DNA of 32,000 nt, taken from Candidatus Thorarchaeota archaeon. Lineage in GTDB: Archaea > Asgardarchaeota > Heimdallarchaeia > Hodarchaeales > Hodarchaeaceae. The position numbers and the translations under genes were made by a program. Positions 6,409-32,000 of the stretch are shown here, piece by piece; position 1 is the first letter of the stretch, and every line of letters begins with the position of its first letter. The notes beneath the pieces are model-generated. The model searched no databases. It was not told where the DNA came from and saw only the letters and a program-made list of their open reading frames with translations. The stretch spans positions 3,540-35,539 of the forward strand of contig JBHLRO010000030.1 in the NCBI GenBank assembly GCA_048882505.1. Direction: 5' to 3'.

Positions 6409-7164
6409 TTGAGTTTAGTCGAAAGAATACGGAAGATGGAACTATCACTTGATGAATTAATACCCAAGTTCCAAGGAAGGTTAGAACTAATTCGTGAGGA
6501 TCTCAAGTTATTAATAACTGGCATAGATGATTTGAAAACGAGTATTGGCGATAATCGTCGTAAATCAAATGATTATACTAGAGAGATTTCCGATCTATCA
6601 AATGATCTTCAAACTTTTAGAAATGAAATCGCCGAAATTGAGAAGGAGATTTCCCGATTACAAGATATGGCCCATACCGTCAATATGGAAACACAGGAAT
6701 TAAACAGTGAACTAATGGCGGAGAGAAACCGGCTTGGAACTCTCGAAGGAGAAAAAAACGCGCTAGAACATAGCTTAAGTGAGCTCGAACGCGAAGAAAC
6801 AGGATTACAAGAAATTCACGATCAATTCAAACCGAAATTTGAGAAAGAAGTCGCCTTAATCAATGAACGTCATACTTCGCTCAAGAAGAAACATGATTTA
6901 CTTGGTTATCGTTTCCAAGCTATGCGCATCCTATGTTCTGAGGGCTATCTCTCGACCCCAGAGGTAAATATAGTAAGGTACCTCGCTATGAAGCCATCTT
7001 CGACCTCAAATGTAACAGAAATTAGGTCCACACTTGGGGTTGATCCGACAGCGTTATCTACGGTTCTTCAAGGCCTGGCCACACGGCAAGTACTTGAACT
7101 GGACGAGTCCTCGGGTGATATTACAATACTTGCCAAGATTGATCTATTTAACGAGGTGAAATGA
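6409..7164 (+). CDS. Long coiled-coil protein with C-terminal winged-helix-like domain (paralog A)
   Basis: About 180 aa of continuous heptad E/K/L-rich helix, then PEVNIVRYLAMK...VTEIRSTLGVDPTALSTVLQGLATRQVLELDESSGDITI (HTH plus wing). Confidence 0.7.
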   Translation: MSLVERIRKMELSLDELIPKFQGRLELIREDLKLLITGIDDLKTSIGDNRRKSNDYTREISDLSNDLQTFRNEIAEIEKEISRLQDMAHTVNMETQELNSELMAERNRLGTLEGEKNALEHSLSELEREETGLQEIHDQFKPKFEKEVALINERHTSLKKKHDLLGYRFQAMRILCSEGYLSTPEVNIVRYLAMKPSSTSNVTEIRSTLGVDPTALSTVLQGLATRQVLELDESSGDITILAKIDLFNEVK

Positions 7165-18466: not shown

Positions 18467-21109
18467 ATGAAAATAGTCAGGTCATCAACCTCAGAGATCT
18501 CATTTCTAGTTGAATCTATCGATATTCCGATGCAAGAACAGGATTTCATAATAATCACTGAACCTGAGAGAGATGGGGAAGCCCCCCAGAAATATTTGGC
18601 TCAAATTGAAAAGCTGATTCAAAACAAAGAAGGTAGTATCACAGGCAGCGCAGCAATTTTGGGGATTATAAATGCCACAGACCACAGCCTATCTGCATGT
18701 CGATTTCCTATCTCAACAGATTCTCGTTTGGATCCGCCACCTGTCGGGCTTATTTCGAAAATCCTTTCTTCACGGGACGATAGAGGAATATATCTGGGAG
18801 ATGTAATTACCTCTGCAAACCAAAAAGAACCTTTTCTGATCACACCTAATTTTATTGAAAGACATTTGTTATGTGTCGCAACTACGGGAGCAGGGAAGTC
18901 ATATAGCATAGGGGTTCTACTTGAGGAAATTCTACTGAAATTTCCAGAAGCGGCTGTCATCCTGTTCGATATTCATAATGAATATTGGGGTTTAGCTCTT
19001 CCCAATGATGGCATCGAAGTAGAGCATTTAGACCACCAAGACTACTCTCCACGGGGATTTCTAGCCAATATCTTAATCTTCGAAAAAGAATCCCTAGGTC
19101 TGGGAAGAAAGTTCGATCTACCTCGCCTCCGTCGCTTGGTGGATCTAACTGCACCACAAGAAAATTCACTCGCTACGCTCCTGGATTCGCCATTGGTCCT
19201 GGAGGACTTGATTGAGAAAATCAAGCAAAGTGAGGATATGCATAGTGCCACGCGAGAGAATTTAATTTCTAAAATTCGAAAACTTCGTACTCTAAGATTT
19301 TTTGATTCTGAATTACCATTGGATGCCCTAGTTCGATCCGGACAGGTGTCATTGGTACGTTTGGATCAATTTGTGGATGAACGGAACAGGGGTATTGTGG
19401 TTAATGAGATCCTTACCCAGCTGTTTGACCAGAAGATTCGTGGAGAACTTGACACCAAAGAAGTTATTATCGTTTGCGAAGAAGCACATCGTTTTTCCTC
19501 GGAAAATGATATTTTAGCTAGAATCTCACGTGAAGGCCGTAAGTTTGGAATCTATACCGTTCTTGTCTCCCAGCGACCAGGGGATCTTCCTGATGATATC
19601 ATCGCCAACATGAACACGCTCATAGCACTTCGTGTTCGTTCAGATAAGGATCTGACGAAAATCCGACTGATGGAGGGAATTCGGGCTGAAACGGTAGCGT
19701 TACTTCCACACTTGTCTCGCGGAGAAGCGTTAATTGTCGGGCTTCGACAAGGTACTTATCGCCCAATTAAGGTTTTAGTTCGCCCACGTATGAGTAAACA
19801 TATCGACCCTCAAATAGATCATTTGCCTGATTCAATTCCTCGATATTCACCTCACAGACAGATTGCCATTAGTCCTCCTGTTACATCAGTGCCCGAGGAG
19901 ATTAAACCACCGCCCAGCTATTCCCCACCACTTATCGATGCCATCCAAGCTTTTGATTCCAAAGATTTGAGTAATCTTTTAGCGTGCGAACACGTTTTCA
20001 TCCTACATAAGCGTACTGGACTTTGTCTCTTTGATCTTAGTGTGAGCATGCTAGAAATTGATTCGCAACTCGTCTCGGGATTTTTAACAGCTATTTCAGG
20101 GTTTTTTCAGGAACTAAAGACCCAGAGTTCTGTAAAAGAAAGGCTCATTGTCCGAACTTTTGCTGAAGATATCGGCGATCGTGCTTTCGAGATAGTACAA
20201 TGTGAGGGAGAATATACGGTAACTGCTGTCATCCTTGATCGCGCCCTCAAATATCTAAACAAGTTCAAACAACGAATAAGGGATTTTGTATATGTTTTTG
20301 AAAACACATTTCGGTCTCAGCTAAATTCAGCGAGTACCAGTGGTGTTATCATACACGAGGATTTTGCCATGGCCATAAAGCTTCTCGACTACTTCATGGG
20401 CTTTTCCTTGCTCATTCCCCTGCGATTAGATCCTTTTCCACCAGAAATGGAATTTTCTGATCTCTTAGGAATTATTGATTCTCAAATGGAAAGAGTAGCT
20501 AAATCTGAGGGTCTCTTTGCTGAGGAAATCGTCAATCAGTGTCTATTGGACTCTGAATATAATCTAAGGGAAATTATCCAAGCTGTCCTCCTTTTCTTAC
20601 AGAAAGGAATCTTGGTTCTGCAGGATAAAACACGAACATTACCTCCCTTTACAGAGACTTCTAGACCCGGAGATCTCATTGAATCCTCTCCAATCGAGGA
20701 TATCAAGGTAAAGGAGGAACCTCTTCTCGAAAAGATGTCCGTTATCCCTCCTAAACTCTCTGAGGAAAACGAAACACTCCACATCGAGTGGTTGCCTGCT
20801 GTTATTGAAAAAATCACGCCAACTGCTCTACCAAATGCCTTGGTACCTGATATTTTAGAAAGAGATCTCATTTTTGAATCGGATTTAAGGATAAAAACGC
20901 ATTCCACAAGAGTAGAAACCCTTTCAAAAACTGATCTCGATAAGTGGGCTCGAATTATGGACACGAATGGCTTTATTTTGACTCAACAGAATGGAAATCC
21001 TCTTAGCGGGATAAAACTGATATTTGAATCAGAAGCGACGAAACTTGTCTGTTCGCTCGCAAAACTGAAGGACGGCGATTATATACTCATTCTTGGAGAA
21101 ATACTATGA
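18467..21109 (+). CDS. HerA-like (DUF87) ATPase fused to a longin-like domain, a winged helix and a further C-terminal domain
   Basis: HAS-barrel-like N-terminus; RHLLCVATTGAGKS; FDIHNEY; VCEEAHRF; REGRKFG; VSQRP; Pro-rich linker. Then HVFILHKRTGLCLF...DSQLVSGFLTAISGFFQEL (Asgard longin-like) and EEIVNQC...IIQAVLLFLQKGILV (wHTH). Confidence 0.82.
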   Translation: MKIVRSSTSEISFLVESIDIPMQEQDFIIITEPERDGEAPQKYLAQIEKLIQNKEGSITGSAAILGIINATDHSLSACRFPISTDSRLDPPPVGLISKILSSRDDRGIYLGDVITSANQKEPFLITPNFIERHLLCVATTGAGKSYSIGVLLEEILLKFPEAAVILFDIHNEYWGLALPNDGIEVEHLDHQDYSPRGFLANILIFEKESLGLGRKFDLPRLRRLVDLTAPQENSLATLLDSPLVLEDLIEKIKQSEDMHSATRENLISKIRKLRTLRFFDSELPLDALVRSGQVSLVRLDQFVDERNRGIVVNEILTQLFDQKIRGELDTKEVIIVCEEAHRFSSENDILARISREGRKFGIYTVLVSQRPGDLPDDIIANMNTLIALRVRSDKDLTKIRLMEGIRAETVALLPHLSRGEALIVGLRQGTYRPIKVLVRPRMSKHIDPQIDHLPDSIPRYSPHRQIAISPPVTSVPEEIKPPPSYSPPLIDAIQAFDSKDLSNLLACEHVFILHKRTGLCLFDLSVSMLEIDSQLVSGFLTAISGFFQELKTQSSVKERLIVRTFAEDIGDRAFEIVQCEGEYTVTAVILDRALKYLNKFKQRIRDFVYVFENTFRSQLNSASTSGVIIHEDFAMAIKLLDYFMGFSLLIPLRLDPFPPEMEFSDLLGIIDSQMERVAKSEGLFAEEIVNQCLLDSEYNLREIIQAVLLFLQKGILVLQDKTRTLPPFTETSRPGDLIESSPIEDIKVKEEPLLEKMSVIPPKLSEENETLHIEWLPAVIEKITPTALPNALVPDILERDLIFESDLRIKTHSTRVETLSKTDLDKWARIMDTNGFILTQQNGNPLSGIKLIFESEATKLVCSLAKLKDGDYILILGEIL

Positions 21110-21175: not shown

Positions 21176-23755
21176 TTACCCCATAAATTCCCGATCAACA
21201 ATCATTTGTTCGTCCTTGAAAATGTCCAGATTCCCAAGCCAGGTTGGAAGAACCTTCGCATAACGCTTTTCAAAATCGACAAGAAAATCATTCAGTTTTC
21301 TTCGAAGTTCGGTAGATGTAGAATCAGCAAAGATGGCTGCAAACACCCACTTGGCATACTCAATGGTCAAAACAACATCTCCATGATCGATGGTTCTGAG
21401 GAGTTGTTCACTCCTTACAGCTTCTTTGGCAAAAGAAGTTATGGCCGAAAAAAGACCAGCTACTAGGGCAGGTTCAACTATTGATTCTTTACCAAACGTA
21501 TGGGCAAGTACAGCGCGGCCATCAAGCATCATAACATGCAGAGAGTCGATTGTGACTTCTTCAAACGAATAAGCGAATTCCCTATGTAAAAGGGATAAAA
21601 CTTGCGTTAAAGGAACCTCCAAATCGAAAGTGAGCTCATCCAAAATATGGTGAATCTCTGTGTTGCTCAAACCAGTAGCATTAGAGAGTTCTCCAATGGG
21701 ACGATATTGAGTGGAGAGGGCTTGTCGTAAAACGGCGCCATCATCGATTTTCTCCCAACGCTCGTTTATTAGAGCCTTGACAGCGGGATCATCAACGGTA
21801 CCAGGGAGTCCAATAAGAATAATATCGGATTTTCGGGATATTTCACCTTCCGAAGGCAACCGTGTCATATCGGAAAAAACGGATTTATATTGGGTTTTTC
21901 CTTCTCCTTTTTGTGTTCTCGTATGGAATTGAATCCGGGCAAGGAAAAGTAAGGCGCCGAAGATAAGGATTATTGCCAAAGGATGTAGAAGATTGTAAGG
22001 AATGGAAAGGATGCCCAAAAAAGTACTACCTCCCGTTCCACGCCATATCACTGGAATTTGATGCAGCTCAGGCACCAAGAAGTAAACATCTGCAAACCTA
22101 CCTGTTTTCCACACACTCGTGAGCCATTTTAAGTTTATAACTTGACCAAAGCCGGCCAAAGTGGATTCTATTGTTATAAAAGGTGTAATCAATGGAACCC
22201 CAGCAAAACGGGGGAATCCCTGTGGAAGACCCAGGAATGTGGCCCATCCACCAGAATACCAACTGATGAGAGCCAAACTCACTGTTAAGATCGAAAGATA
22301 TGTGACAACAGCAGTTCCAATTATACTCCAATTCCATCTCCGGAAAAAAAGAAGCACAAGGGCCGCAATTAGGAATGTAGCATAATTTTGCGTTAACCAA
22401 AAGAAAGTGTCATATTGGACAGTATTAATATTGACAAAAATACTTTGTATAATCACTCGATATGCAAAAAACATGAATGCTAATAAGAAGCCAATTACAA
22501 CTCCGAATGAATAGGATTTTACCGTATTACGGACGGAAATACGTTTGAAGGAGGTTCGAACGTTTTTGATGGTTTCGATTAGCTTAATAAGAAGATAAAT
22601 CGAAAATGGTTCAAATATATCCAGGAATAGGATAAAAAAGATTGATACCATTAGGAAATATACGACAAAATAAGAAATTACAAATATCTGTTGCGAGAAA
22701 AGGATTAGGAAAAGAAACACTGCCAGGATTGACATGAACGCTCCGACTGTCGATAGACTTTGGACCATTGCTACATATAGCTGATTGCCCAAAAACTTCC
22801 CTTTTCGTGATAATCGACTGGCTTTAATCAGATATACGGAGAAAACAATCGCCGCAATATAGGCAAAGAAGATCTCCAGGAACCACCCCATAGAGGTCCC
22901 TTGTAGCAAGCTAGGATTTTCCTCCTCACCAAGAGCTAGAAGAATAGTATTAAGCAAGAATAGAGTAATCGGTAGGATAGCAATCAAGACTTTTAAGAGC
23001 TCTCGCTCATTATCCCAATCTTTCTCCTTCACGCGGATCGATATTTCTTGGAATGGAGAGTTTTCAGTTTCATATTGGATTTCTCTTATTCGTTCTCTTA
23101 CCCCACGGACTTGGAGGAATTGGTTCCGTAGATCTTCATTATCCTTTTCCAGTTCTTCTATCGCAGTAGTTAAGGCTTGAAGCTCATCCCCCGTTGCGTG
23201 CTTTTTCTGGGCCTGAAATTCTTTCAAGTTTTCTTGATTCCGTTTAATCAGTCTTTTCAAAGGTTTTCGATCATTTCGTTTATCCCCCCATGTCTGATAG
23301 AGAATTATTCCCATAGATAAGAATGGAGATATACCGAAAACAAAAGCAAGAATTACTACGGGATATGTTAGGAAGATAACGATACTGTTCACGAAATGTT
23401 GGAACAAATATTTGACCAATAGAGGAATTGGAATAAAAATCGCTCCAGTTTGGATGACGGCTTCAGAATCCCAGACTGTTGACCATTGGTTGCTGTTTGA
23501 GATAGGATAGTATTGCTGTTCCAAGTATGCGGACGGGTTAGGAACCAAGGCATTCAAGAAGCTAGGAAAAATAAAATATGCCAAATAAAAAACACAAAAA
23601 CCAATGAATCCCCTATTATAGATAGTTGCTCGTATATTATCCCTTTTTCTGCGGGTAAACAAGTATGGGATAGCTAGTACTATAAGGGGGGAGAGTGACA
23701 GGACAACCGAAACGGTCAAATTAAGGGGATCCGAAAGCGGGTCAAACAAGTCCAT
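21176..23755 (-). CDS. Polytopic membrane protein (more than 10 TM segments, cytoplasmic coiled coil) with C-terminal HTH and longin-like domain
   Basis: Many hydrophobic segments; coiled coil LKRLIKRNQENLKE...EELEKDNEDLRNQ; C-terminus LHVMMLDGRAVLAHTF...LVAGLFSAITSFAKEA...LRTIDHGDVVLTIEYAKWVFAAIFAD...LRRKLNDFLVDFEKRY is a typical Asgard longin-like fold. Confidence 0.8.
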   Translation of the reverse strand: MDLFDPLSDPLNLTVSVVLSLSPLIVLAIPYLFTRRKRDNIRATIYNRGFIGFCVFYLAYFIFPSFLNALVPNPSAYLEQQYYPISNSNQWSTVWDSEAVIQTGAIFIPIPLLVKYLFQHFVNSIVIFLTYPVVILAFVFGISPFLSMGIILYQTWGDKRNDRKPLKRLIKRNQENLKEFQAQKKHATGDELQALTTAIEELEKDNEDLRNQFLQVRGVRERIREIQYETENSPFQEISIRVKEKDWDNERELLKVLIAILPITLFLLNTILLALGEEENPSLLQGTSMGWFLEIFFAYIAAIVFSVYLIKASRLSRKGKFLGNQLYVAMVQSLSTVGAFMSILAVFLFLILFSQQIFVISYFVVYFLMVSIFFILFLDIFEPFSIYLLIKLIETIKNVRTSFKRISVRNTVKSYSFGVVIGFLLAFMFFAYRVIIQSIFVNINTVQYDTFFWLTQNYATFLIAALVLLFFRRWNWSIIGTAVVTYLSILTVSLALISWYSGGWATFLGLPQGFPRFAGVPLITPFITIESTLAGFGQVINLKWLTSVWKTGRFADVYFLVPELHQIPVIWRGTGGSTFLGILSIPYNLLHPLAIILIFGALLFLARIQFHTRTQKGEGKTQYKSVFSDMTRLPSEGEISRKSDIILIGLPGTVDDPAVKALINERWEKIDDGAVLRQALSTQYRPIGELSNATGLSNTEIHHILDELTFDLEVPLTQVLSLLHREFAYSFEEVTIDSLHVMMLDGRAVLAHTFGKESIVEPALVAGLFSAITSFAKEAVRSEQLLRTIDHGDVVLTIEYAKWVFAAIFADSTSTELRRKLNDFLVDFEKRYAKVLPTWLGNLDIFKDEQMIVDREFMG

Positions 23756-23779
23756 GAAAAGGCACCATTACAATTGAAT

Positions 23780-23796
23780 CTATCGATTATCGATAG
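23780..23796. promoter_or_regulatory. Perfect 17-bp palindrome CTATCGAT-T-ATCGATAG, candidate operator
   Basis: 8-bp arms with a 1-nt spacer, 25 bp upstream of the ATG of the membrane-longin gene. Confidence 0.45.
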
Positions 23797-24083
23797 CTAG
23801 GTTTACCTGTCTTTTTAGTTTTTTGAACCTTTTTCTATTAAACCGCAAAATCCACAATGACGGGCTCCAAAAAGTCTCATGAGTTCTCGTCACATATCTT
23901 GAAAATGAGCGCCATTAAGTCATGTGAACCCTTACATACGAATTTTTCAGAGGCTCTCGACTATATACAAGACTCTTGGGAATATGAAGAATGAATATTA
24001 CACCCTAAAAATCGAAATATCTTCTAGTTGATAAAACTAGAGAAAAGAAGGAATAATAAAAAAAAGGAGAGAAGAGGGGAGAT

Positions 24084-25841
24084 TTAACGTCTCTTTCTGT
24101 ACAATGCGACCAAGGGGGGAATTGCCAGGACTACTGAGAGCAGTTCAAATCCCGATATCGGACCCGTGGTTGTATCTCCCGGACCTGGTCCCGTAGTAGT
24201 TGTATCTCCTGCTGCGAGCGCAGCTACGGCAGAATAGGCAGGATCGTGTATGATTTCACCACCATACCACTCTGGGAACTCTGTAAAGGTGAAGTATAGC
24301 ACAAAGTTGAAGTAGACGCCTTCGTCACCAGGCGGTAAAAGACCCGGCTCCAGTTGGACAGCAAACCACTTTGTGAACTGATAGGCTAGCGCAAATTCCA
24401 ATTTAAAGTAGACTTTTGATACGTCAGGAATAGCCCAGGCCCAGTTGGTTGGATCGAAGAGGTGAATTTCTACATTTCGAGGCACCGCGGGATCAATATT
24501 CCACGGCGCGTTTTCAAGACCTTGTAGGAGATACGTATACTTGCCCGTGAATTCTGTGTAAAAGAATGTATTTCCACCTGAGTCCAAACTGATACGTCGT
24601 TGAGTAGGATTGTCTGTTTCATCTGTATGTTCTGGATTAGATAAACCAATAGATGTGGTAGCGGTGGCTACTGTTAATCCAAATCCATTCTGCATATTCA
24701 TCCGTCTCTTGGCATCATCGTTGAAATAGAAGGCCATGTTTGGAAAGAACACCGTTTTACTAGCTGGAATATTTTTACCCAAAACATCCACACTGACTAA
24801 CGATGAAGGCATTTGGAATGTGTAGTTTGGTTGGTCAGTAAATGGAGAATAATCCCAGGTTTCTGACATGTTAACCGTTTCTCCGGCGATAACCAAGAAA
24901 TTTGTTTCCCCGATGTTATAATGTGTAGTGGTGGTTCCTAGCACATGAGCGTTAGCGCCGCTGTTTATTTGCGTTGTAAATTCATATTCAAAGCTTAAAT
25001 AGTCCAAAACACTGGCAGCTACAATATTTTTTCCAAAAACAATTCCTCCTGGGTTATCAGCAACGAGATTTGCGTCTCCTAGGATGTCAATTCCGCCCAG
25101 TTCAACACTAATTGGTTGCCATAGTACGAACAGATTGGTGTAGTTTATTCCAAACCTGTATCCGTTTTCTACTGTCTCGAAGAAGGGAAAATAGTCGAAA
25201 TGATTGATTCGATAGGAATGTCCGTTGTCTGCGAATACATCATTGAAGCCATCGATCCCTTCTTGCAGGCCAAAAGTATAGCCCATGTAAATTTCATCCC
25301 CAGCGTCCATTGTGGTGTCAGTCGAATTGGAGCTGTATGCTATGAGCGACATGAAGTTATTAGTCACGAAAACTTCTTCATTATCCCAAGGTACTGTCCA
25401 ATGCTGGACTAATTGCTGGAATGGAGCAGTCGCATTAATATGGAAGATTGGGGTGCGCAAGGCGTCTTGGTACTGAGGGAACAAGGGAGAGTCCAAAACT
25501 GTCTTGATATCATCATGGAATAGATCTAGCAACGTCAGGTTGTGTTCGTACTTCTCCAAGGCGGAAAAACCCGTTTCGATACCAGAATTATTCATATATG
25601 CGAAGAAGAACTGTTTGTCTTCTGTTTCATCAGAATCTCCCGTTGCAGCACTTGCGTTATAGAGATCGCGAATTAAATCAGGATTGGCTGGATCCACGAC
25701 TGCTACGTCTACTTCTACGGCAAAGTAGTCTTCACTGAATGAGTGGCCCACAAAGGAAGATGCAGCACTGACGGGGGTGGAGATCATTACAAGGGCTAGC
25801 AGAAAGATCACTGAAAAGCCCATAAGAAGCTTCTTTTTCAT
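24084..25841 (-). CDS. Secreted cell-surface (glyco)protein with PGF-CTERM-like sorting signal
   Basis: Signal peptide MKKKLLMGFSVIFLLALVMISTPVSA; many N-x-S/T sequons; Thr/Gly/Pro linker GDTTTTGPGPGDTTTGP; terminus ISGFELLSVVLAIPPLVALYRKRR. GGTGA RBS favours ATG 25841. Confidence 0.85.
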   Translation of the reverse strand: MKKKLLMGFSVIFLLALVMISTPVSAASSFVGHSFSEDYFAVEVDVAVVDPANPDLIRDLYNASAATGDSDETEDKQFFFAYMNNSGIETGFSALEKYEHNLTLLDLFHDDIKTVLDSPLFPQYQDALRTPIFHINATAPFQQLVQHWTVPWDNEEVFVTNNFMSLIAYSSNSTDTTMDAGDEIYMGYTFGLQEGIDGFNDVFADNGHSYRINHFDYFPFFETVENGYRFGINYTNLFVLWQPISVELGGIDILGDANLVADNPGGIVFGKNIVAASVLDYLSFEYEFTTQINSGANAHVLGTTTTHYNIGETNFLVIAGETVNMSETWDYSPFTDQPNYTFQMPSSLVSVDVLGKNIPASKTVFFPNMAFYFNDDAKRRMNMQNGFGLTVATATTSIGLSNPEHTDETDNPTQRRISLDSGGNTFFYTEFTGKYTYLLQGLENAPWNIDPAVPRNVEIHLFDPTNWAWAIPDVSKVYFKLEFALAYQFTKWFAVQLEPGLLPPGDEGVYFNFVLYFTFTEFPEWYGGEIIHDPAYSAVAALAAGDTTTTGPGPGDTTTGPISGFELLSVVLAIPPLVALYRKRR

Positions 25842-25981
25842 CTCATTAATCACCTAAGAATATCTTCGGGTAAGAGCTACCCAAGTCAGATTCTAACCTC
25901 TTCCACCTACTTAGCATTATTAAAGATGTATGTAATTAAAATCCGCAATTTTGTTCCTAAGAAAGGGTTTGGCGAGTGTAT

Positions 25982-27613
25982 TTAGCCACGGCGCCATTTC
26001 TTACGCGTAAGAACCACCAAAGCTAGAACAACAGTTATGTTTGGCCATAATTGGAATGATGTGATCTGCCCATTGGATGATAGGTTCGAAGGCGGAGAGT
26101 CCTTGATTGCGTATTGAAGAGAACTAAACGCAAATGGAGTGCCTGCCCATGATGGTAATCTGAATTCACGGTTATACAGAGCATCTGTAAGATACAGATT
26201 AGATAGGTGATAAAGTTCGTCACTCGTTAGAGAACTTACATTTGAGTTCTCAACAAATCGTTTAATACTATCTACAATCAAATGCCTAACCAAGGATGTC
26301 TCTTGGGAGAAGAGCTCGGCACCTGCAAAACCGATATGTTGGTTAAATGCAATAGTTTTCGTAACAGCGGGGACAAATGATTCTGAACCAACTTCGTTTT
26401 CTCTTTGAACAACGTAGTCACGACCTGTAACGGGAGTTGACGTAAGGAGAATACCATCATGAATAATGTCGACCGCTTCTGTAATTGGGAAATCCGCTTC
26501 ATTGAGTGCGGATACAGTCTTATTTTGGTCATCAATTTCTATTTGAATGTCCTCTAATGGGTTAATGTCGTTAAAAATACCAACATTGTGACCCGTAAGG
26601 AGGGAAAGCGAAATTTCGGGGAATAGATCCAATCGGGTCTGGATATCGGAGCCTTTATACCAGGAGATGGTTTCGTTGATTGTGAAGAGCTGATTGTAGG
26701 TCTTTTCAATTTTACCTTGGGTAGAATTTGTCCAGATCGGTTCTGCAGGTAGTTCTTCATTTATTATCAAATTCGTCACTCTTCCAATTGAAACATCACT
26801 AATCGTTTCTACACCCTCAATTTCATATGAAGTATATTTTCTGATGGTTAAGGAGAAAGTTATGTTTTCGAACTGAACCAACAGAAACTTATTAGCAATA
26901 CCCACTACTGAAACTTGGCTAAAATCTATGTTCTCCGTTTGAAACAAATAGGTGATGTTTGAGTACGTCATATCTATTCGTACTCCCAATGGCAGTTCCT
27001 CCATTTCGACCAAGAGCGTACTGGATGTATCAGTCGAAAAATTACCACCATAAAGAGATTCTAGGAATTCTAGAGGAACATTCCCGTATCCCAGTTGGTA
27101 GTGAGCCGGATTAAATCCAGATCCATTAATCTTAAGGGCTATGCCTAGAAAATCCTGTGTGATGACAAAATCTTGCCCCGATGGGAGTTCGAAGTGGTGT
27201 AAATATTTGACATAGGGGACAGTAGAAGTCACTTTTAATGAATCAATCAGAGGATGCGTTCGTTTAACCTTCTCCAAGGCTAGGACAGTAGATTGGATGC
27301 TTGGAGTTTGGTGGACGACCATAGAGACGATATTATCCTCATCAAGATCTGGATCGCTGGTATCATTGAAGGGCTGGTGGGTAAATAAGTTTTGCTTGAG
27401 GTAAATTGCCTCATCAATGGAGGTCTCTTGTACATTATTGAAGTCAAATTCTACCCCAAACAAACTTTGTCCATCGAAGAAAGGATTGAGCTGGGAGAAA
27501 ACATAATTGTTACTTTCGGCTACTGCCGTGGTATTACCCGTCCAAATAAGTCCAAAAAAGAAAATGCCGGATAATCCCAGAATGAGAAGGAAGGTTTGAG
27601 AATGTTTGATTAT
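25982..27613 (-). CDS. Secreted cell-surface protein, paralog of 24084-25841; probable non-canonical ATA start
   Basis: The frame is open 50 codons upstream of the ORF-track start (27463) and adds a signal peptide (IIKHSQTFLLILGLSGIFFFGLIWTGNTTAVA|ES). Shared blocks with the neighbour: ALEK, VPYVKYLHHF/APFQQLVQHW, YSNITYLFQ/YTNLFVLWQ, LPSWAG/FPEWYG. C-terminal ITSF+TM+RKKWRRG. Confidence 0.75.
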   Translation of the reverse strand: MIKHSQTFLLILGLSGIFFFGLIWTGNTTAVAESNNYVFSQLNPFFDGQSLFGVEFDFNNVQETSIDEAIYLKQNLFTHQPFNDTSDPDLDEDNIVSMVVHQTPSIQSTVLALEKVKRTHPLIDSLKVTSTVPYVKYLHHFELPSGQDFVITQDFLGIALKINGSGFNPAHYQLGYGNVPLEFLESLYGGNFSTDTSSTLLVEMEELPLGVRIDMTYSNITYLFQTENIDFSQVSVVGIANKFLLVQFENITFSLTIRKYTSYEIEGVETISDVSIGRVTNLIINEELPAEPIWTNSTQGKIEKTYNQLFTINETISWYKGSDIQTRLDLFPEISLSLLTGHNVGIFNDINPLEDIQIEIDDQNKTVSALNEADFPITEAVDIIHDGILLTSTPVTGRDYVVQRENEVGSESFVPAVTKTIAFNQHIGFAGAELFSQETSLVRHLIVDSIKRFVENSNVSSLTSDELYHLSNLYLTDALYNREFRLPSWAGTPFAFSSLQYAIKDSPPSNLSSNGQITSFQLWPNITVVLALVVLTRKKWRRG

Positions 27614-29128
27614 CTAGCTTACCTCCAAGTAATCCTTTAACCACGTCAGGTGCTTTGATCCAATTGTATATGAAGATCTCTTCTGGTCCTTTATAATAAT
27701 TATGACCCCTAACTCCGATAATTTCTTTATGTGATGTTGTACGCTTGAATGGTGGGCATTGATCTCGTTAGAAAGCTGTGATAACGACATTGGCTTACGT
27801 TTATCCATTAATGTGCGACACAGCTCTCTTGAAAGATTGCTTTTCAAGGCTAAGGCCAATTCCGAGGTTTGCGGTGATTTTTCTCCGAGAATGTAGAAGA
27901 TATGATAACGTCCAACCTTCTCATGCGTGACGAAGTTAAAATCATCTAAGGCCTGGAGGTGCCATAGCAGTGATGAGATTCCGCATCCGATTTCTCTCTG
28001 AATCTCCCGTAAATGGGCTCCTTGTTCCCCTTTCTCCTCTAGATACTCCATTATTTGTGCCCTGAGTTCGTTATCGAGTAATTCATCTTCAGTCATCCTT
28101 CGACGTTGAGGTGAGTAGGTCACGTGTGCGATGAAGAAAAATGTACCCAAAAGCGCACCAACAATAACGTCACGACTCTTCGACATGAGTCCTGTTTGTA
28201 CCAATAAAACAAAGCCGATAATGGCTGCTCCACCAAGAACCGCCAGTCCGACAAGCTGTTCCAGTCCACCAAACTCTATTAGAGCGTTATTTCCATTGGA
28301 AGAGGGCCTCACGGTCAAGAGCGCGGTCTGTTGCAATATTGAAACAATTTCTGGTTCAGTAACCCTCCCGTTTGAATTCAGGAGGAAAAAGTTGGATCCA
28401 ATGGAACTCTCTTGAACTTCTAGAGCAAAACTCCCAATTACCACTCGCGGGCCGTCCATCCAAATTCCTGAATGAAAACCGTCAAATATTGATTCGAAGG
28501 GTTCAGGCTTGGGAATTTCCGCCAAGAGTCGAGTACGATTACTGAGCGCAACCCAAGCTGAGCTGCCAGGGAATTCAAGATTGGTTTGGGATGAATTGAT
28601 GTTTAATAGAGACATTTGAGCTTCGTCAAGTTGAATATTTAGATTGTCATAAGAACCGTCAAGTGGATACACAACGGGTGCGGTGGCGGTAATTCCAAGC
28701 TGATTAAGGATCTGAAGGGGCGTGGTATGTAAAAATCGATTTAGTATAAAGACTCCTCTTCCCGATTCTTTCCACAGCCTTATATTCACGGGCAATTTGA
28801 TTGGCAAGGGCTGATCATTGATCCACCAGATTGCGCCGACGCTCTCATTTTGAAAGAGGAATGAGCTATTGGAAAAGAGGTGCTCAATATCATAATAGGT
28901 CGCTTGTCGCCCAGAATCGGCCACTAAGCTTTCACCCAATGATTTGTCCTTAAAAGACCCGTAAAATATCGCAATCTTTTCTAAATCAGAGAAGTTTTGC
29001 TCTGTCCTAGCAAATAGCCCCGTTCCAAGACTAGAAAAGAGAATTCCCCAAAAAACTAGAAAAAAGAAAACGATATGAATTATCGGGGCTCTTACTTCCA
29101 ACTTCATGATTTCGCTACCCATTTTCAA
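27614..29128 (-). CDS. Membrane-anchored transcription regulator: extracellular domain, two TM helices, tandem C-terminal wHTH (COG3398-like)
   Basis: N-terminal hydrophobic signal, about 260 aa ectodomain, TM segments LVGLAVLGGAAIIGFVLLV and VIVGALLGTFFFIA. Then LDNELRAQIMEYL...HLREIQREIGCGISSLLWHLQAL and LSQLSNEINAHHSSVQHHIKKL. The start may be ATG 29122 or 29107. Confidence 0.8.
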   Translation of the reverse strand: MKMGSEIMKLEVRAPIIHIVFFFLVFWGILFSSLGTGLFARTEQNFSDLEKIAIFYGSFKDKSLGESLVADSGRQATYYDIEHLFSNSSFLFQNESVGAIWWINDQPLPIKLPVNIRLWKESGRGVFILNRFLHTTPLQILNQLGITATAPVVYPLDGSYDNLNIQLDEAQMSLLNINSSQTNLEFPGSSAWVALSNRTRLLAEIPKPEPFESIFDGFHSGIWMDGPRVVIGSFALEVQESSIGSNFFLLNSNGRVTEPEIVSILQQTALLTVRPSSNGNNALIEFGGLEQLVGLAVLGGAAIIGFVLLVQTGLMSKSRDVIVGALLGTFFFIAHVTYSPQRRRMTEDELLDNELRAQIMEYLEEKGEQGAHLREIQREIGCGISSLLWHLQALDDFNFVTHEKVGRYHIFYILGEKSPQTSELALALKSNLSRELCRTLMDKRKPMSLSQLSNEINAHHSSVQHHIKKLSELGVIIIIKDQKRSSYTIGSKHLTWLKDYLEVS

Positions 29129-29198: not shown

Positions 29199-29708
29199 AT
29201 GTCTGATCCCTTATTTAACTACTATCTTGCTGTTCCATGGAAGGCCGATTATGTACGAAGTAAAAAAGATCCGAATCGATGTATTCTCTGTGAAATTTCC
29301 CAAAAAAGGAGTTCAGAAGATTCGTGGGAAGTTTTCCGTGATGACAAAGTAATTGTCTTGCTCAATAAATTTCCATATACCCCGGGTCATCTTTTAATCG
29401 CACCATTGGAACATTTTGAAGAGTTTACCGACCTACCTCAAGTCTTGATAACTCGTCTAACGTTAATACTACAACGATCGGTCCTTCTTCTAAATCGTAC
29501 TCACTCTCCCATGGGATTCAATGTGGGACTTAATCTGGGTGATGCAGCCGGCGGGAGTATTAGACACATACATTGGCATGTTGTCCCACGCTACAGAGGT
29601 GATCTGAATTTTATGGATATCCTAAGGACAAGAACGTTGATCGAGACTCTAGATGAGACCCTCGCAAAATTACAAAAACACAGCCAGTTACTCGCGGGAT
29701 CCCCCTAG
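29199..29708 (+). CDS. HIT-family nucleotide hydrolase/phosphorylase (Ap4A phosphorylase-like)
   Basis: CILC, LNKFPYTPGHLLIAP, GFNVGLNLGDAAGGSIRHIHWHVVPR (HxHxH). GGAGGT precedes ATG 29199; the ORF-track start 29106 overlaps the divergent gene. Confidence 0.93.
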   Translation: MSDPLFNYYLAVPWKADYVRSKKDPNRCILCEISQKRSSEDSWEVFRDDKVIVLLNKFPYTPGHLLIAPLEHFEEFTDLPQVLITRLTLILQRSVLLLNRTHSPMGFNVGLNLGDAAGGSIRHIHWHVVPRYRGDLNFMDILRTRTLIETLDETLAKLQKHSQLLAGSP

Positions 29709-30022
29709 TTTATATTAAAAGAAGATGTTGGCTCCAAATCTCTTTGACAGTTTATCAACTATAATCTTATAACAGGGAGAAAAGACGGGGTACCTTGAAA
29801 GGCCAGTTATGAATCGTTGGTTTATTGAAATAATTTAAATATTCAATTATTGAGGGCAAGATAGGGCTTTTCGGACTATTCATTTGAGGCCCCTTATATA
29901 GAACACCCACCATCATCCTAGTGTAGAGCATTTTGAATATTTCCATCTGCTCCATTAGGTGTAAGGAAACCAAAATCCCTATATCACCTTTCACATAAGA
30001 TTCTATGGAGGAATCGCTAGAA

Positions 30023-30460
30023 ATGAAACTGATTCGAAATATACCAAAAAAACGGCGGGCTGTAAGCCCGATTCTAGCCGCAATACTCTTGATTGGGCTT
30101 GCTATAACAGCCGGGGCGGTCCTTTTCGTCGTTGTTCTCCCGTTGATAACGGCTCCTGGAAGTGGAGTCGTTTTTGATTCGGGAACAACTGAGCTTACAG
30201 CTAATTCGGTTCACGTTGTGCTCAGAAACGAAGGATCCGAAATAGTAACAGTCACAGGCATTAGTGTAAAAAATGGTACAGATACGGCCGCTATTAATAC
30301 CACATTCAACTCCTTTTCAATCGGTGTAGGACAGGGGGCCATCAAAGACTACACTTTCGCAACGGGCCTTTCGTCCGGGCCTTACACCATAGAAGCGACA
30401 TACTATATTGGAACAGATACGACAAACACAGGAACCGCAACTCTGAACACAAACATCTGA
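30023..30460 (+). CDS. Archaeal type IV pilin / archaellin-like protein with class III signal peptide
   Basis: KKRRA|VSPILAAILLIGLAITAGAVLF (PibD/FlaK-type cleavage site plus hydrophobic helix), followed by a small beta-rich Thr/Ser-rich domain. GGAGG precedes ATG 30023. Confidence 0.88.
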   Translation: MKLIRNIPKKRRAVSPILAAILLIGLAITAGAVLFVVVLPLITAPGSGVVFDSGTTELTANSVHVVLRNEGSEIVTVTGISVKNGTDTAAINTTFNSFSIGVGQGAIKDYTFATGLSSGPYTIEATYYIGTDTTNTGTATLNTNI

Positions 30461-30502
30461 ATAGGAAAATAAACCACCTCATGTTTCCTATTTTTATTTA
30501 TT
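30460..30502 (+). terminator. Hairpin plus T-tract downstream of the pilin gene
   Basis: ATAGGAAA (30461-68) pairs with TTTCCTAT (30484-91), followed by TTTTATTTATTT, between convergent genes. Confidence 0.55.
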
Positions 30503-30570
30503 TCATTCCAGACTCTCACGATCATGTGAAGGAATATATTACAAGTTCAGTGTAATGTCCACATATGTCC

Positions 30571-31032
30571 CTATTTGAACTGTACATTGGCCGCCCGACT
30601 TCTCACATACTTATTAAAGACCATTTTCCCATCAGTCAAAACGCTACTTAAATTCCTACCAAATTCGGACCAGTATTTGATAAGCGACTGTCGTTCTTGC
30701 CGAGTCTTGACCATTTCAGGGGAGAGGAAAAACGAGATCTCAAAACCTTCTTCTGGAGTTTTCATTACCGTGAGGTGACGATCAGAATTGCGAGCCAGCT
30801 CGGTACGCATTCGATCGAAAATAAACTGCTCAACAGGGTCGTTAATTGCGATTTTCAAGGAAACGACGGCAGAATTACCGTGTCGAATTACTTCCCCATT
30901 TTCAAAAGGGATTACCTCTCGTGGTACCCCCTTACAACACTCATCATCTGGTTCCATAACGCAAATTGGCTCTCTTCCTCCGCTTTTACAATCTAGTGGC
31001 TCTAAAATCAAATCCGTCTCTGATAATGGCAA
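30571..31032 (-). CDS. ARPC4 (Arp2/3 complex p20 subunit)-like protein
   Basis: NSAVVSLKIAINDPVEQFIFDRMRTELARNSDRHLTVMKTPEEGFEISFFL...GKMVFNKYVRSRA aligns by eye with human ARPC4 [51 protein letters not shown]...MKLSVNARARIVA. Confidence 0.78.
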   Translation of the reverse strand: MPLSETDLILEPLDCKSGGREPICVMEPDDECCKGVPREVIPFENGEVIRHGNSAVVSLKIAINDPVEQFIFDRMRTELARNSDRHLTVMKTPEEGFEISFFLSPEMVKTRQERQSLIKYWSEFGRNLSSVLTDGKMVFNKYVRSRAANVQFK

Positions 31033-31184
31033 CTAATGCTCACCCAATATACTAGCAACTTGTAATTGGGGAATGGTCTCTCTCTATTTACAGCTTGCTA
31101 ATGGACGGGACAAGAAAAAGGGCCTCGCATTATTCGTAAAACGCCCATTGGATTGAAATATTGATAGAAATACGCCAACAAATA

Positions 31185-31613
31185 TCAAAAATCGCGCAGA
31201 TTGAGCATTTTCTTACGGGTGGAGGTAATGAGATAGTGCATCAAACCGAGCTTCACGCTTGGTTCTGTTATTAGAACTAATATTGCACCTTCCACCTTAG
31301 AAAGTAATCCTAGACCTTGTGGTGTTTGAACATGGATGAAATCGATTTCTGTACCAAGATTAAGTTGGATGCAAGCACTAGAAAACGTACTAAATATTCC
31401 TGCAACCATAGCTGAAGCTAAGGTCTCCACTTCATCACTTATGGGTTTTGTTTTGGCACATAAGATGGGAAATCCTTCTTCACTTACTAAAAGAGCTTTT
31501 CTCACTCCTTGAACGGCCCCAAGTCCATCTAAGATACGTTGGACACGGGTCATTGATGAATTTTCATCCTCTGGTTTGCCGGCAAGTTGATCATAAAGCG
31601 CCAATATAATCAC
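31185..31613 (-). CDS. Roadblock/LC7 (MglB-like) domain protein
   Basis: VQGVRKALLVSEEGFPI...TLASAMVAGIFST...IHVQTPQGLGLL...LVLITEPSVKLGLM. The start may be ATG 31553. Confidence 0.88.
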   Translation of the reverse strand: MIILALYDQLAGKPEDENSSMTRVQRILDGLGAVQGVRKALLVSEEGFPILCAKTKPISDEVETLASAMVAGIFSTFSSACIQLNLGTEIDFIHVQTPQGLGLLSKVEGAILVLITEPSVKLGLMHYLITSTRKKMLNLRDF

Positions 31614-31827
31614 ACACTGAGCTAGGTAGGGTAATGGAATTGATTACCTCTCAGGTAGTATTCAACATATTGGTATATAAAAACCAAAATTCTTGGATTG
31701 CATTTGTCTCAGAATCATGGAACATCAACACACAAAAAACCGAGAAAAGACCGTCACTCGTGGTAAGTCAGAGAATAATTTATTATTCGGTCATCATATC
31801 GGGCTATTAACCGATGAGGTAACCCCA

Positions 31828-32000
31828 ATGAGTGAAACGATACGTATGCAGCGCTGTAATCCTTGTCAGGTCGCGGTTATGCCTAGTGAACATGGAACCA
31901 CGCGTTTTCCGTGCCCAAACTGTGGGATGATTCCAATTATCCGGTGTGAACGCTGTCGTCAGCTGGGTAATCGGTATACGTGTCCGAATTGCGGGTTCAC
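31828..32000 (+). CDS. DUF1610 (HVO_2753-type) small zinc-finger protein; runs off the window edge
   Basis: Not in the ORF track. Manual translation: MSETIRMQRCNPCQVAVMPSEHGTTRFPCPNCGMIPIIRCERCRQLGNRYTCPNCGF, four CxxC motifs. RBS GAGGT at 31816-31820. Confidence 0.9.
   Translation, partial: MSETIRMQRCNPCQVAVMPSEHGTTRFPCPNCGMIPIIRCERCRQLGNRYTCPNCGF

Follow-up and report, generated by a model that had tools for sequence, protein, structure and literature searches.

Near one end of the window (the whole 32,000-nucleotide stretch analysed here) lies a gene whose product is a true homologue of ARPC4: sequence profiles and a structural model both give it the complete alpha/beta fold of this Arp2/3 subunit together with its long C-terminal helix. 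We lean towards the view that it is a stand-alone ARPC4 homologue, in which the cysteine loop would be metal-bound, the C-terminal helix would bind the side of actin filaments, and the protein would pair with itself without nucleating branches. The family has been listed in the literature since about 2017 and is catalogued as the Asgard eukaryotic signature protein 'ARP2/3 complex subunit 4' (PMC7444086; PMC7522288; 2026 structural-clustering preprint). The window protein is a real and well-supported but ordinary member of it. In the literature covered by our searches the Asgard family is only listed; we found there no description of the cysteine cluster, of alternative ligand sets or of covariation with actin, and no experiment on Asgard ARPC4. 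What is specific to the window's copy is its remodelled ligand set, together with the alternation of two such sets within the genus.

The gene and its fold

The original prediction took this open reading frame for a gene, and it is one: an in-frame TAG at 31035-31033 stands immediately upstream of the TTG on the minus strand, a Shine-Dalgarno-like GGGTGA precedes the start (Table 1), and the N-terminus is kept in homologues. There are 21 close homologues, all of 152-159 aa and all covering the query from its first residues, which come from Hodarchaeales, Heimdallarchaeota and 'Promethearchaeota' MAGs and are annotated as hypothetical proteins. Conservation begins at residue 3, with L3, L10, C15, E21, P22, I23 and C24 invariant across the window protein and the 21 homologues, so that the long TTG form is the one translated, not a form starting at the internal ATG of M26.

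Table 1. Coordinates of the ARPC4-like gene, its parts and its upstream neighbour in the window.
Feature	Position	Strand	Basis and remarks
ARPC4-like gene	30571..31032	-	153 aa, TTG start; ORF, Pfam PF05856, homologues of like length, AF2 model, structural Z 15
Long C-terminal helix, residues 111-150	30583..30702	-	DSSP on AF2 model; role in Arp2/3 from PMC9894260, PMC10918085
Pfam ARPC4 match: residues 53-148 on positions 68-162 of the 167-position model	30589..30876	-	Pfam and profile alignments
K136, N140, R144 (equivalents of S. pombe ARPC4 K150, N154, R158)	30601..30627	-	Alignments
Cysteine cluster, residues 15-33 (C15, C24, E27, D30, C32, C33)	30934..30990	-	Conservation; probable Zn knuckle, remodelled
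Shine-Dalgarno-like GGGTGA	31040..31045	-	7 nt before the TTG; read from sequence
TAAATA, possible archaeal TATA box	31085..31090	-	53-58 nt upstream of the start; inferred from sequence
Roadblock/LC7-domain protein, 142 aa	31185..31613	-	PF03259, E 1.1e-7; adjoins the ARPC4-like gene on its upstream side, same strand

The likeness to ARPC4 had first been seen by eye (NS..VS, D..E, P.EG..ISF, N...R), and profile searches establish that it is real. The protein matches Pfam PF05856 with E 1e-8 and 35.4 bits (curated cut-off 22.2); a search of NCBIfam gave no match. Used alone, the window sequence finds ARPC4 in the PDB weakly (E 0.08), and an Asgard-only profile (A4, 30 sequences) finds S. pombe ARPC4 with E 3.3e-13 and bovine ARPC4 with E 1e-12, along with a faint match (E 0.032) to the two ARPC2 domains. 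The AlphaFold2 model, for which an alignment of 22 sequences was used (A1; pLDDT 85, pTM 0.76), predicts one globular alpha/beta domain that leads into a helix some 40 residues long, and superposes on solved ARPC4. In Foldseek the top-ranked hits were all ARPC4 (TM 0.70, E 4e-7), with ARPC2 chains behind them. In VIA-align, residues 1-153 of the model matched ARPC4 residues 11-167 with Z 15.0 and an rmsd of 2.7 A over 148 of 153 residues, ARPC2 residues 120-276 matched with Z 9.7 over 130 residues, and unrelated folds reached Z 5.3 or less. A profile or structural match to ARPC4 had been set beforehand as the test of the assignment, and significant matches were obtained in Pfam, Foldseek and VIA-align alike. 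By these scores the protein resembles ARPC4 (Z 15) far more than ARPC2 (Z 9.7).

Eukaryotic ARPC4 (p20-Arc, PF05856; chain F of 1K8K, 1TYQ, 3DWL, 6W17 and 9M64) has the same fold over its whole length, and the two proteins have in common the core motifs NS..S, D..E and P.EGY.ISF as well as the K/N/R stripe on the C-terminal helix. They differ in that the archaeal protein is about 10-15 residues shorter at the N-terminus, that identity is 15-21%, and that eukaryotic ARPC4 lacks the conserved four-ligand cysteine cluster of the archaeal N-terminal loop. The C-terminal alpha/beta domain of ARPC2 (p34-Arc, PF04045) also shares the fold, with much weaker similarity, but ARPC2 consists of two such domains and a tail, whereas the ARPC4-like protein is a single domain. 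Placing the root of eukaryotic ARPC4 within the Asgard sequences was attempted and dropped, the tree having 128 columns and long branches.

Putative actin contact, distribution and neighbouring genes

In eukaryotes, the C-terminal helix of ARPC4 pairs antiparallel with that of ARPC2 and touches the mother filament (PMC9894260; PMC10918085). The isolated ARPC2/ARPC4 dimer binds F-actin with micromolar affinity and accounts for 60% of the mother-filament interface (PMC9894260), and N154 and R158 of S. pombe ARPC4 contact D80, E83 and T126 in subdomain 1 of actin (PMC10918085). These two residues align with N140 and R144 of the window protein in both single-sequence and profile alignments. N140 and R144 are invariant in alignment A1; among 38 Asgard sequences from outside the genus, position 136 is Lys or Arg in all 38, and N140 and R144 are each found in 31. 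K136, N140 and R144 do not vary within the genus, and their equivalents are kept in most Asgard and eukaryote-like sequences. On this evidence, we propose that the protein may bind the side of host actin filaments through the K136, N140, R144 face of its C-terminal helix.

The other side of the putative contact is also present in the host. Its sole actin (440 bits to Pfam Actin; contig C1, 456287-457393) reads W-D-A-M-E at 79-83 and F-E-T-F-N at 124-128, so that D80, E83 and T126 are kept, as is E100. E99 is replaced by Ser, and R55 of S. pombe ARPC4, the partner of actin E99, has no reliable equivalent in the window protein, where the hairpin is two residues shorter. Conservation on the actin side has to be read with care, since many constraints other than ARPC4 binding act on these residues.

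A more direct indication comes from pairing actin with the ARPC4-like protein across 11 Asgard families. Residue 80 of actin is Asp in eukaryotes, and in 9 of the 11 Asgard families D80 occurs with R144 in the ARPC4-like protein. In family f24, actin has Lys or Arg at position 80 (4/4 genomes; L035, L055, L056, L058) and the ARPC4-like protein has E144 (2/2), which amounts to a reciprocal charge swap, and in family f27 P80 (3/3; L046, L057, L059) occurs with D144 (4/4). Family f25, a relative of f24 whose actin is likewise fast-evolving, nevertheless retains D80 with R144. No counterexample was seen across the 11 families: R144 is altered solely in those whose actin has lost D80, an overlap with a chance of about 1 in 55 if families are taken as independent units. 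Because there are two independent events and the f24 actin is fast-evolving overall, this covariation is suggestive, not proof; it supports docking of the protein on actin subdomain 1 in the manner of ARPC4.

The distribution of the gene and its surroundings bear on whether actin is the target at all. Of 400 genomes from the phylum, 70 have a PF05856 match and 345 have actin. The ARPC4-like gene is widespread within certain groups (20 of 21 other genomes of the genus, 26 of 31 of family f4, and 4 of 4 of family f27, where it lies within a longer open frame of 383-394 aa), but its absence from most actin-bearing Asgard genomes means that it is no general requirement of Asgard actin. The window's copy sits in a run of genes (HIT, pilin-like, ARPC4-like, Roadblock/LC7 and HVO_2753 zinc finger) whose order recurs at 11 loci within the genus. 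At 19 loci from other families, the ARPC4-like gene had no Roadblock gene beside it. In family f5 the neighbour is a PadR-TRASH regulator. Family f4 has instead an unrelated helical protein, some 150 aa long, in which Trp, Arg and Glu residues are invariant (alignment A2; L006:2020-2460 (-) plus 12 further loci). Its gene lies immediately upstream of the ARPC4-like one, on the same strand, and the protein has no Pfam match and no homologue in the window's genome. Since the neighbours differ between families, no partner is conserved across them, and Roadblock/LC7 was rejected as a conserved partner, its synteny being confined to the genus.

An alternative that we regard as unlikely is that the ARPC4 fold serves a non-actin role here, for example as an adaptor or chaperone-like scaffold, possibly with Roadblock/LC7 or a small GTPase, whose binding would then occupy the helix face. 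The Roadblock gene directly upstream on the same strand, kept in the 11 loci, would suit such a role, as would the patchy presence of the gene among actin-bearing Asgard genomes and the identity of the next-best structural neighbours, which are type III secretion chaperones and YbjN-like proteins (Z 4-5). These chaperone matches are, however, far weaker than those to ARPC4, and the Roadblock neighbour is lost outside the genus, where the f4 helical protein or the f5 PadR regulator stands instead. Even in the window a T-tract at 31112-31120, past the end of the Roadblock gene and before the ARPC4-like gene, and the TATA-like box come between the two genes. This alternative also has to contend with the conservation of exactly those residues with which ARPC4 contacts actin, and with their covariation with actin residue 80. 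We accordingly retain actin side-binding as the preferred role.

The window also holds archaeal housekeeping genes, including TmcA, CDC48, PAC2, HSP20, JAB, beta-CASP, NfeD, a HerA-like ATPase, a thioredoxin-reductase-like protein and HIT, among others. Several further features were observed. The pilin-like protein whose place beside the ARPC4-like gene is conserved within the genus (30005-30460, +) is 151 aa long, with an archaeal class III (type IV pilin-like) signal-peptide N-terminus (KKRRAVSPILAAILLIGLAI...) and a Thr/Gly-rich body, and is without a Pfam match. The HVO_2753-like small zinc-finger protein (31693-31998, +; PF07754, E 2.5e-16), whose position is conserved in the genus, runs off the window. 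Three large consecutive ORFs of 859, 589 and 493 aa (21176-27463, -) have no Pfam match at E<=0.001; they are flanked by an 880-aa HerA/DUF87-like ATPase (18467-21109, +) and by a 504-aa protein with C-terminal ArsR-type HTH domains (27614-29128, -). A 251-aa coiled-coil protein (6409-7164, +) gives a sub-threshold match to ATG16 (29.8 bits, cut-off 33.7) that probably reflects coiled-coil composition only.

The N-terminal cysteine cluster

The four cysteines to which the original prediction drew attention are present at positions 15, 24, 32 and 33 (LDC, PIC, ECC). They had been read as a metal- or redox-sensitive extension, of which the first half fares better than the second. A metal site is likely, given that the cysteines are kept family-wide and that lost ligands are swapped for ligand-type residues, but the segment is not an extension. 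The whole model superposes on ARPC4 11-167 and the protein is shorter than ARPC4, so that, in the model, the cysteine loop replaces ARPC4's own N-terminal segment; it stands in for that segment instead of being added to an ARPC4 core.

A profile search of 1.8 billion representatives returned 28 relatives only. The motif C-x7-9-C-x2-C-x2-C (or x5) occurs in the N-terminal loop of nearly all archaeal relatives, and is absent from all 3 eukaryote-like representatives. In an alignment of 75 sequences (72 Asgard, 38 of them from outside the window's genus, and 3 eukaryote-like), cysteine occupies the equivalents of C15, C24 and C33 in 71, 71 and 72 of the 72 Asgard sequences. Position 27 is Cys in 37 of the 38 Asgard sequences outside the genus and Glu in the window's copy, and C32 is specific to the genus. 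The short loop thus offers four conserved metal-ligand residues, C15, C24, C33 and a fourth, which is C27 elsewhere and either C32 or E27/D30 here. Compared with the usual Asgard C-x8-C-x2-C-x2-C, the window's set is C15, C24, E27, D30, C32 and C33, two cysteines having been swapped for Glu and Asp and an adjacent one gained.

Within the genus, two ligand sets alternate. Twelve sequences carry C27 and C30, two of which also have C32 and so possess all six cysteines; 21, the window's included, have D/E27, H/D/N30 and the new C32; one outlier is without the site. Wherever a cysteine ligand is lost, Asp, Glu, His or an adjacent Cys takes its place, all ligand-type residues. This argues that selection has maintained a metal site, more probably one for Zn than for a cubane Fe-S cluster. 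From these sequence patterns, the cluster is a putative and probable metal site, with Zn2+ the most likely occupant and an Fe-S cluster or a disulfide as other candidate states of the cysteines. In a tree built without the loop columns, the two types are interleaved within the genus. Repeated switching between the ligand sets, which this tree suggests, was not adopted, as a single origin remains compatible with the data in an AU test (p 0.49). Weak matches of the cysteine region to CHFR and UBR-box zinc domains (E 0.025-2) were likewise set aside as evidence, few cysteines being matched in the alignments.

A competitor to structural zinc is an Fe-S cluster or a redox switch, which would make actin binding or dimerisation redox-responsive. 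The family motif includes CxxCxxC, a spacing typical of ferredoxin-type [4Fe-4S] sites, and the host, an Asgard archaeon of anaerobic type, has many Fe-S enzymes, with radical SAM genes in the window itself. In this genus, however, the CxxCxxC triad is broken, with Glu/Asp, His/Asp and a vicinal cysteine pair in its stead. Zn sites commonly tolerate such ligand changes, whereas cubane clusters seldom do. A vicinal Cys-Cys pair, such as C32 and C33, is itself an unusual ligand pair for one Zn. Weighing these points, we consider the Fe-S or redox explanation quite improbable and continue with zinc. The cluster would then bind a structural metal, most likely Zn2+, that staples the N-terminal loop, a loop that eukaryotic ARPC4 may stabilise through its longer helix and neighbouring subunits. 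In the window's lineage, two ancestral cysteine ligands would have been replaced by Glu27 and Asp30, with Cys32 newly gained.

Partners in the host genome and a possible role

The host is a Heimdall-group (Hodarchaeales-type) archaeon, and its genome is a MAG of 4.3 Mb in 83 contigs, 94.5% complete, with the window on contig 30. Besides its single actin-family gene, it contains two gelsolin-domain genes and a weak profilin-like ORF. Profiles for ARPC2, ARPC3 and ARPC5 (PF04045, PF04062 and PF04699) gave no match at E<=1 in this 94.5%-complete genome, the family profile revealed no further ARPC4-like paralogue at the same threshold, and with one actin-family gene only there is no Arp paralogue. 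ARPC2 and ARPC5 are likely missing from the genome, although control searches with these two profiles matched nowhere either. Measured against the seven-subunit Arp2/3 complex, co-occurrence was not found in the host genome, where ARPC2, Arp2, Arp3, ARPC3 and ARPC5 all went undetected, and the absence of these partners implies that the ARPC4-like protein is no part of a seven-subunit complex. The stand-alone status first proposed from the window, in which Pfam annotation of the ORFs indeed finds no actin, Arp or ARPC2 gene, thus holds for the genome: ARPC2, ARPC3, ARPC5 and a second ARPC4-like paralogue are without a match, and actin is represented once.

A second ARPC4 match lies on contig C83 (L001, 2522 bases), which encodes a zinc finger, Roadblock, ARPC4-like, pilin-like and HIT proteins. 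We rejected it as a paralogue: the contig is colinear throughout and 91% DNA-identical to window 29491-32000, and probably comes from a strain variant that was binned together with the main genome. Two copies, on short contigs, are also seen in genome G075, which belongs to the same genus. That the protein belongs to a cryptic Arp2/3-like complex, with other subunits too divergent to recognise or encoded in the missing 5% of the genome, is very improbable: the genome is a MAG in 83 contigs, 94.5% complete, and the Asgard profile does show its faint similarity to both ARPC2 domains, but a single actin-family gene leaves no candidates for Arp2 or Arp3, ARPC2, ARPC3 and ARPC5 are absent at the Pfam level, and there is no second ARPC4-fold paralogue at E<=1, the copy on contig C83 being a strain variant.

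For a stand-alone ARPC4 homologue, the question becomes what takes the place of ARPC2. Lacking it, the protein would probably self-pair through its C-terminal helix and so form a homodimer where eukaryotes have the ARPC2/ARPC4 heterodimer. We infer this because the partner gene is missing and because a small residue is conserved in the middle of the helix: position 135 is Gly in the window protein and Gly or Ala in 34 of the 38 other Asgard sequences, as opposed to Met or Leu in the eukaryote-like ones. Such a homodimer could act as a filament side-binder, bundler or anchor, not as a branch nucleator. A unifying model, which we put forward tentatively and hold to be somewhat doubtful as a whole, is that Asgard ARPC4 is a metal-stapled homodimer gripping the side of the actin filament by the same Arg/Asn-to-D80/E83 contact that the Arp2/3 clamp uses.

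The origin of the Arp2/3 complex is an open question in eukaryogenesis. To our knowledge, ARPC4 is the sole scaffold subunit of the complex with clear archaeal homologues, none of which has been characterised. If the unifying model is true, the filament-docking module of Arp2/3 would be older than Arp2, Arp3 and branching, and the f24 pair (actin K80, ARPC4 E144) would provide a ready-made natural test of that interface. The window's copy is free of partners and keeps the actin-gripping residues, and in other Asgard lineages its putative contact residue changes with actin residue 80. Together, these observations turn a catalogue entry into a hypothesis testable by mutation, that of a pre-eukaryotic module for binding the side of filaments.
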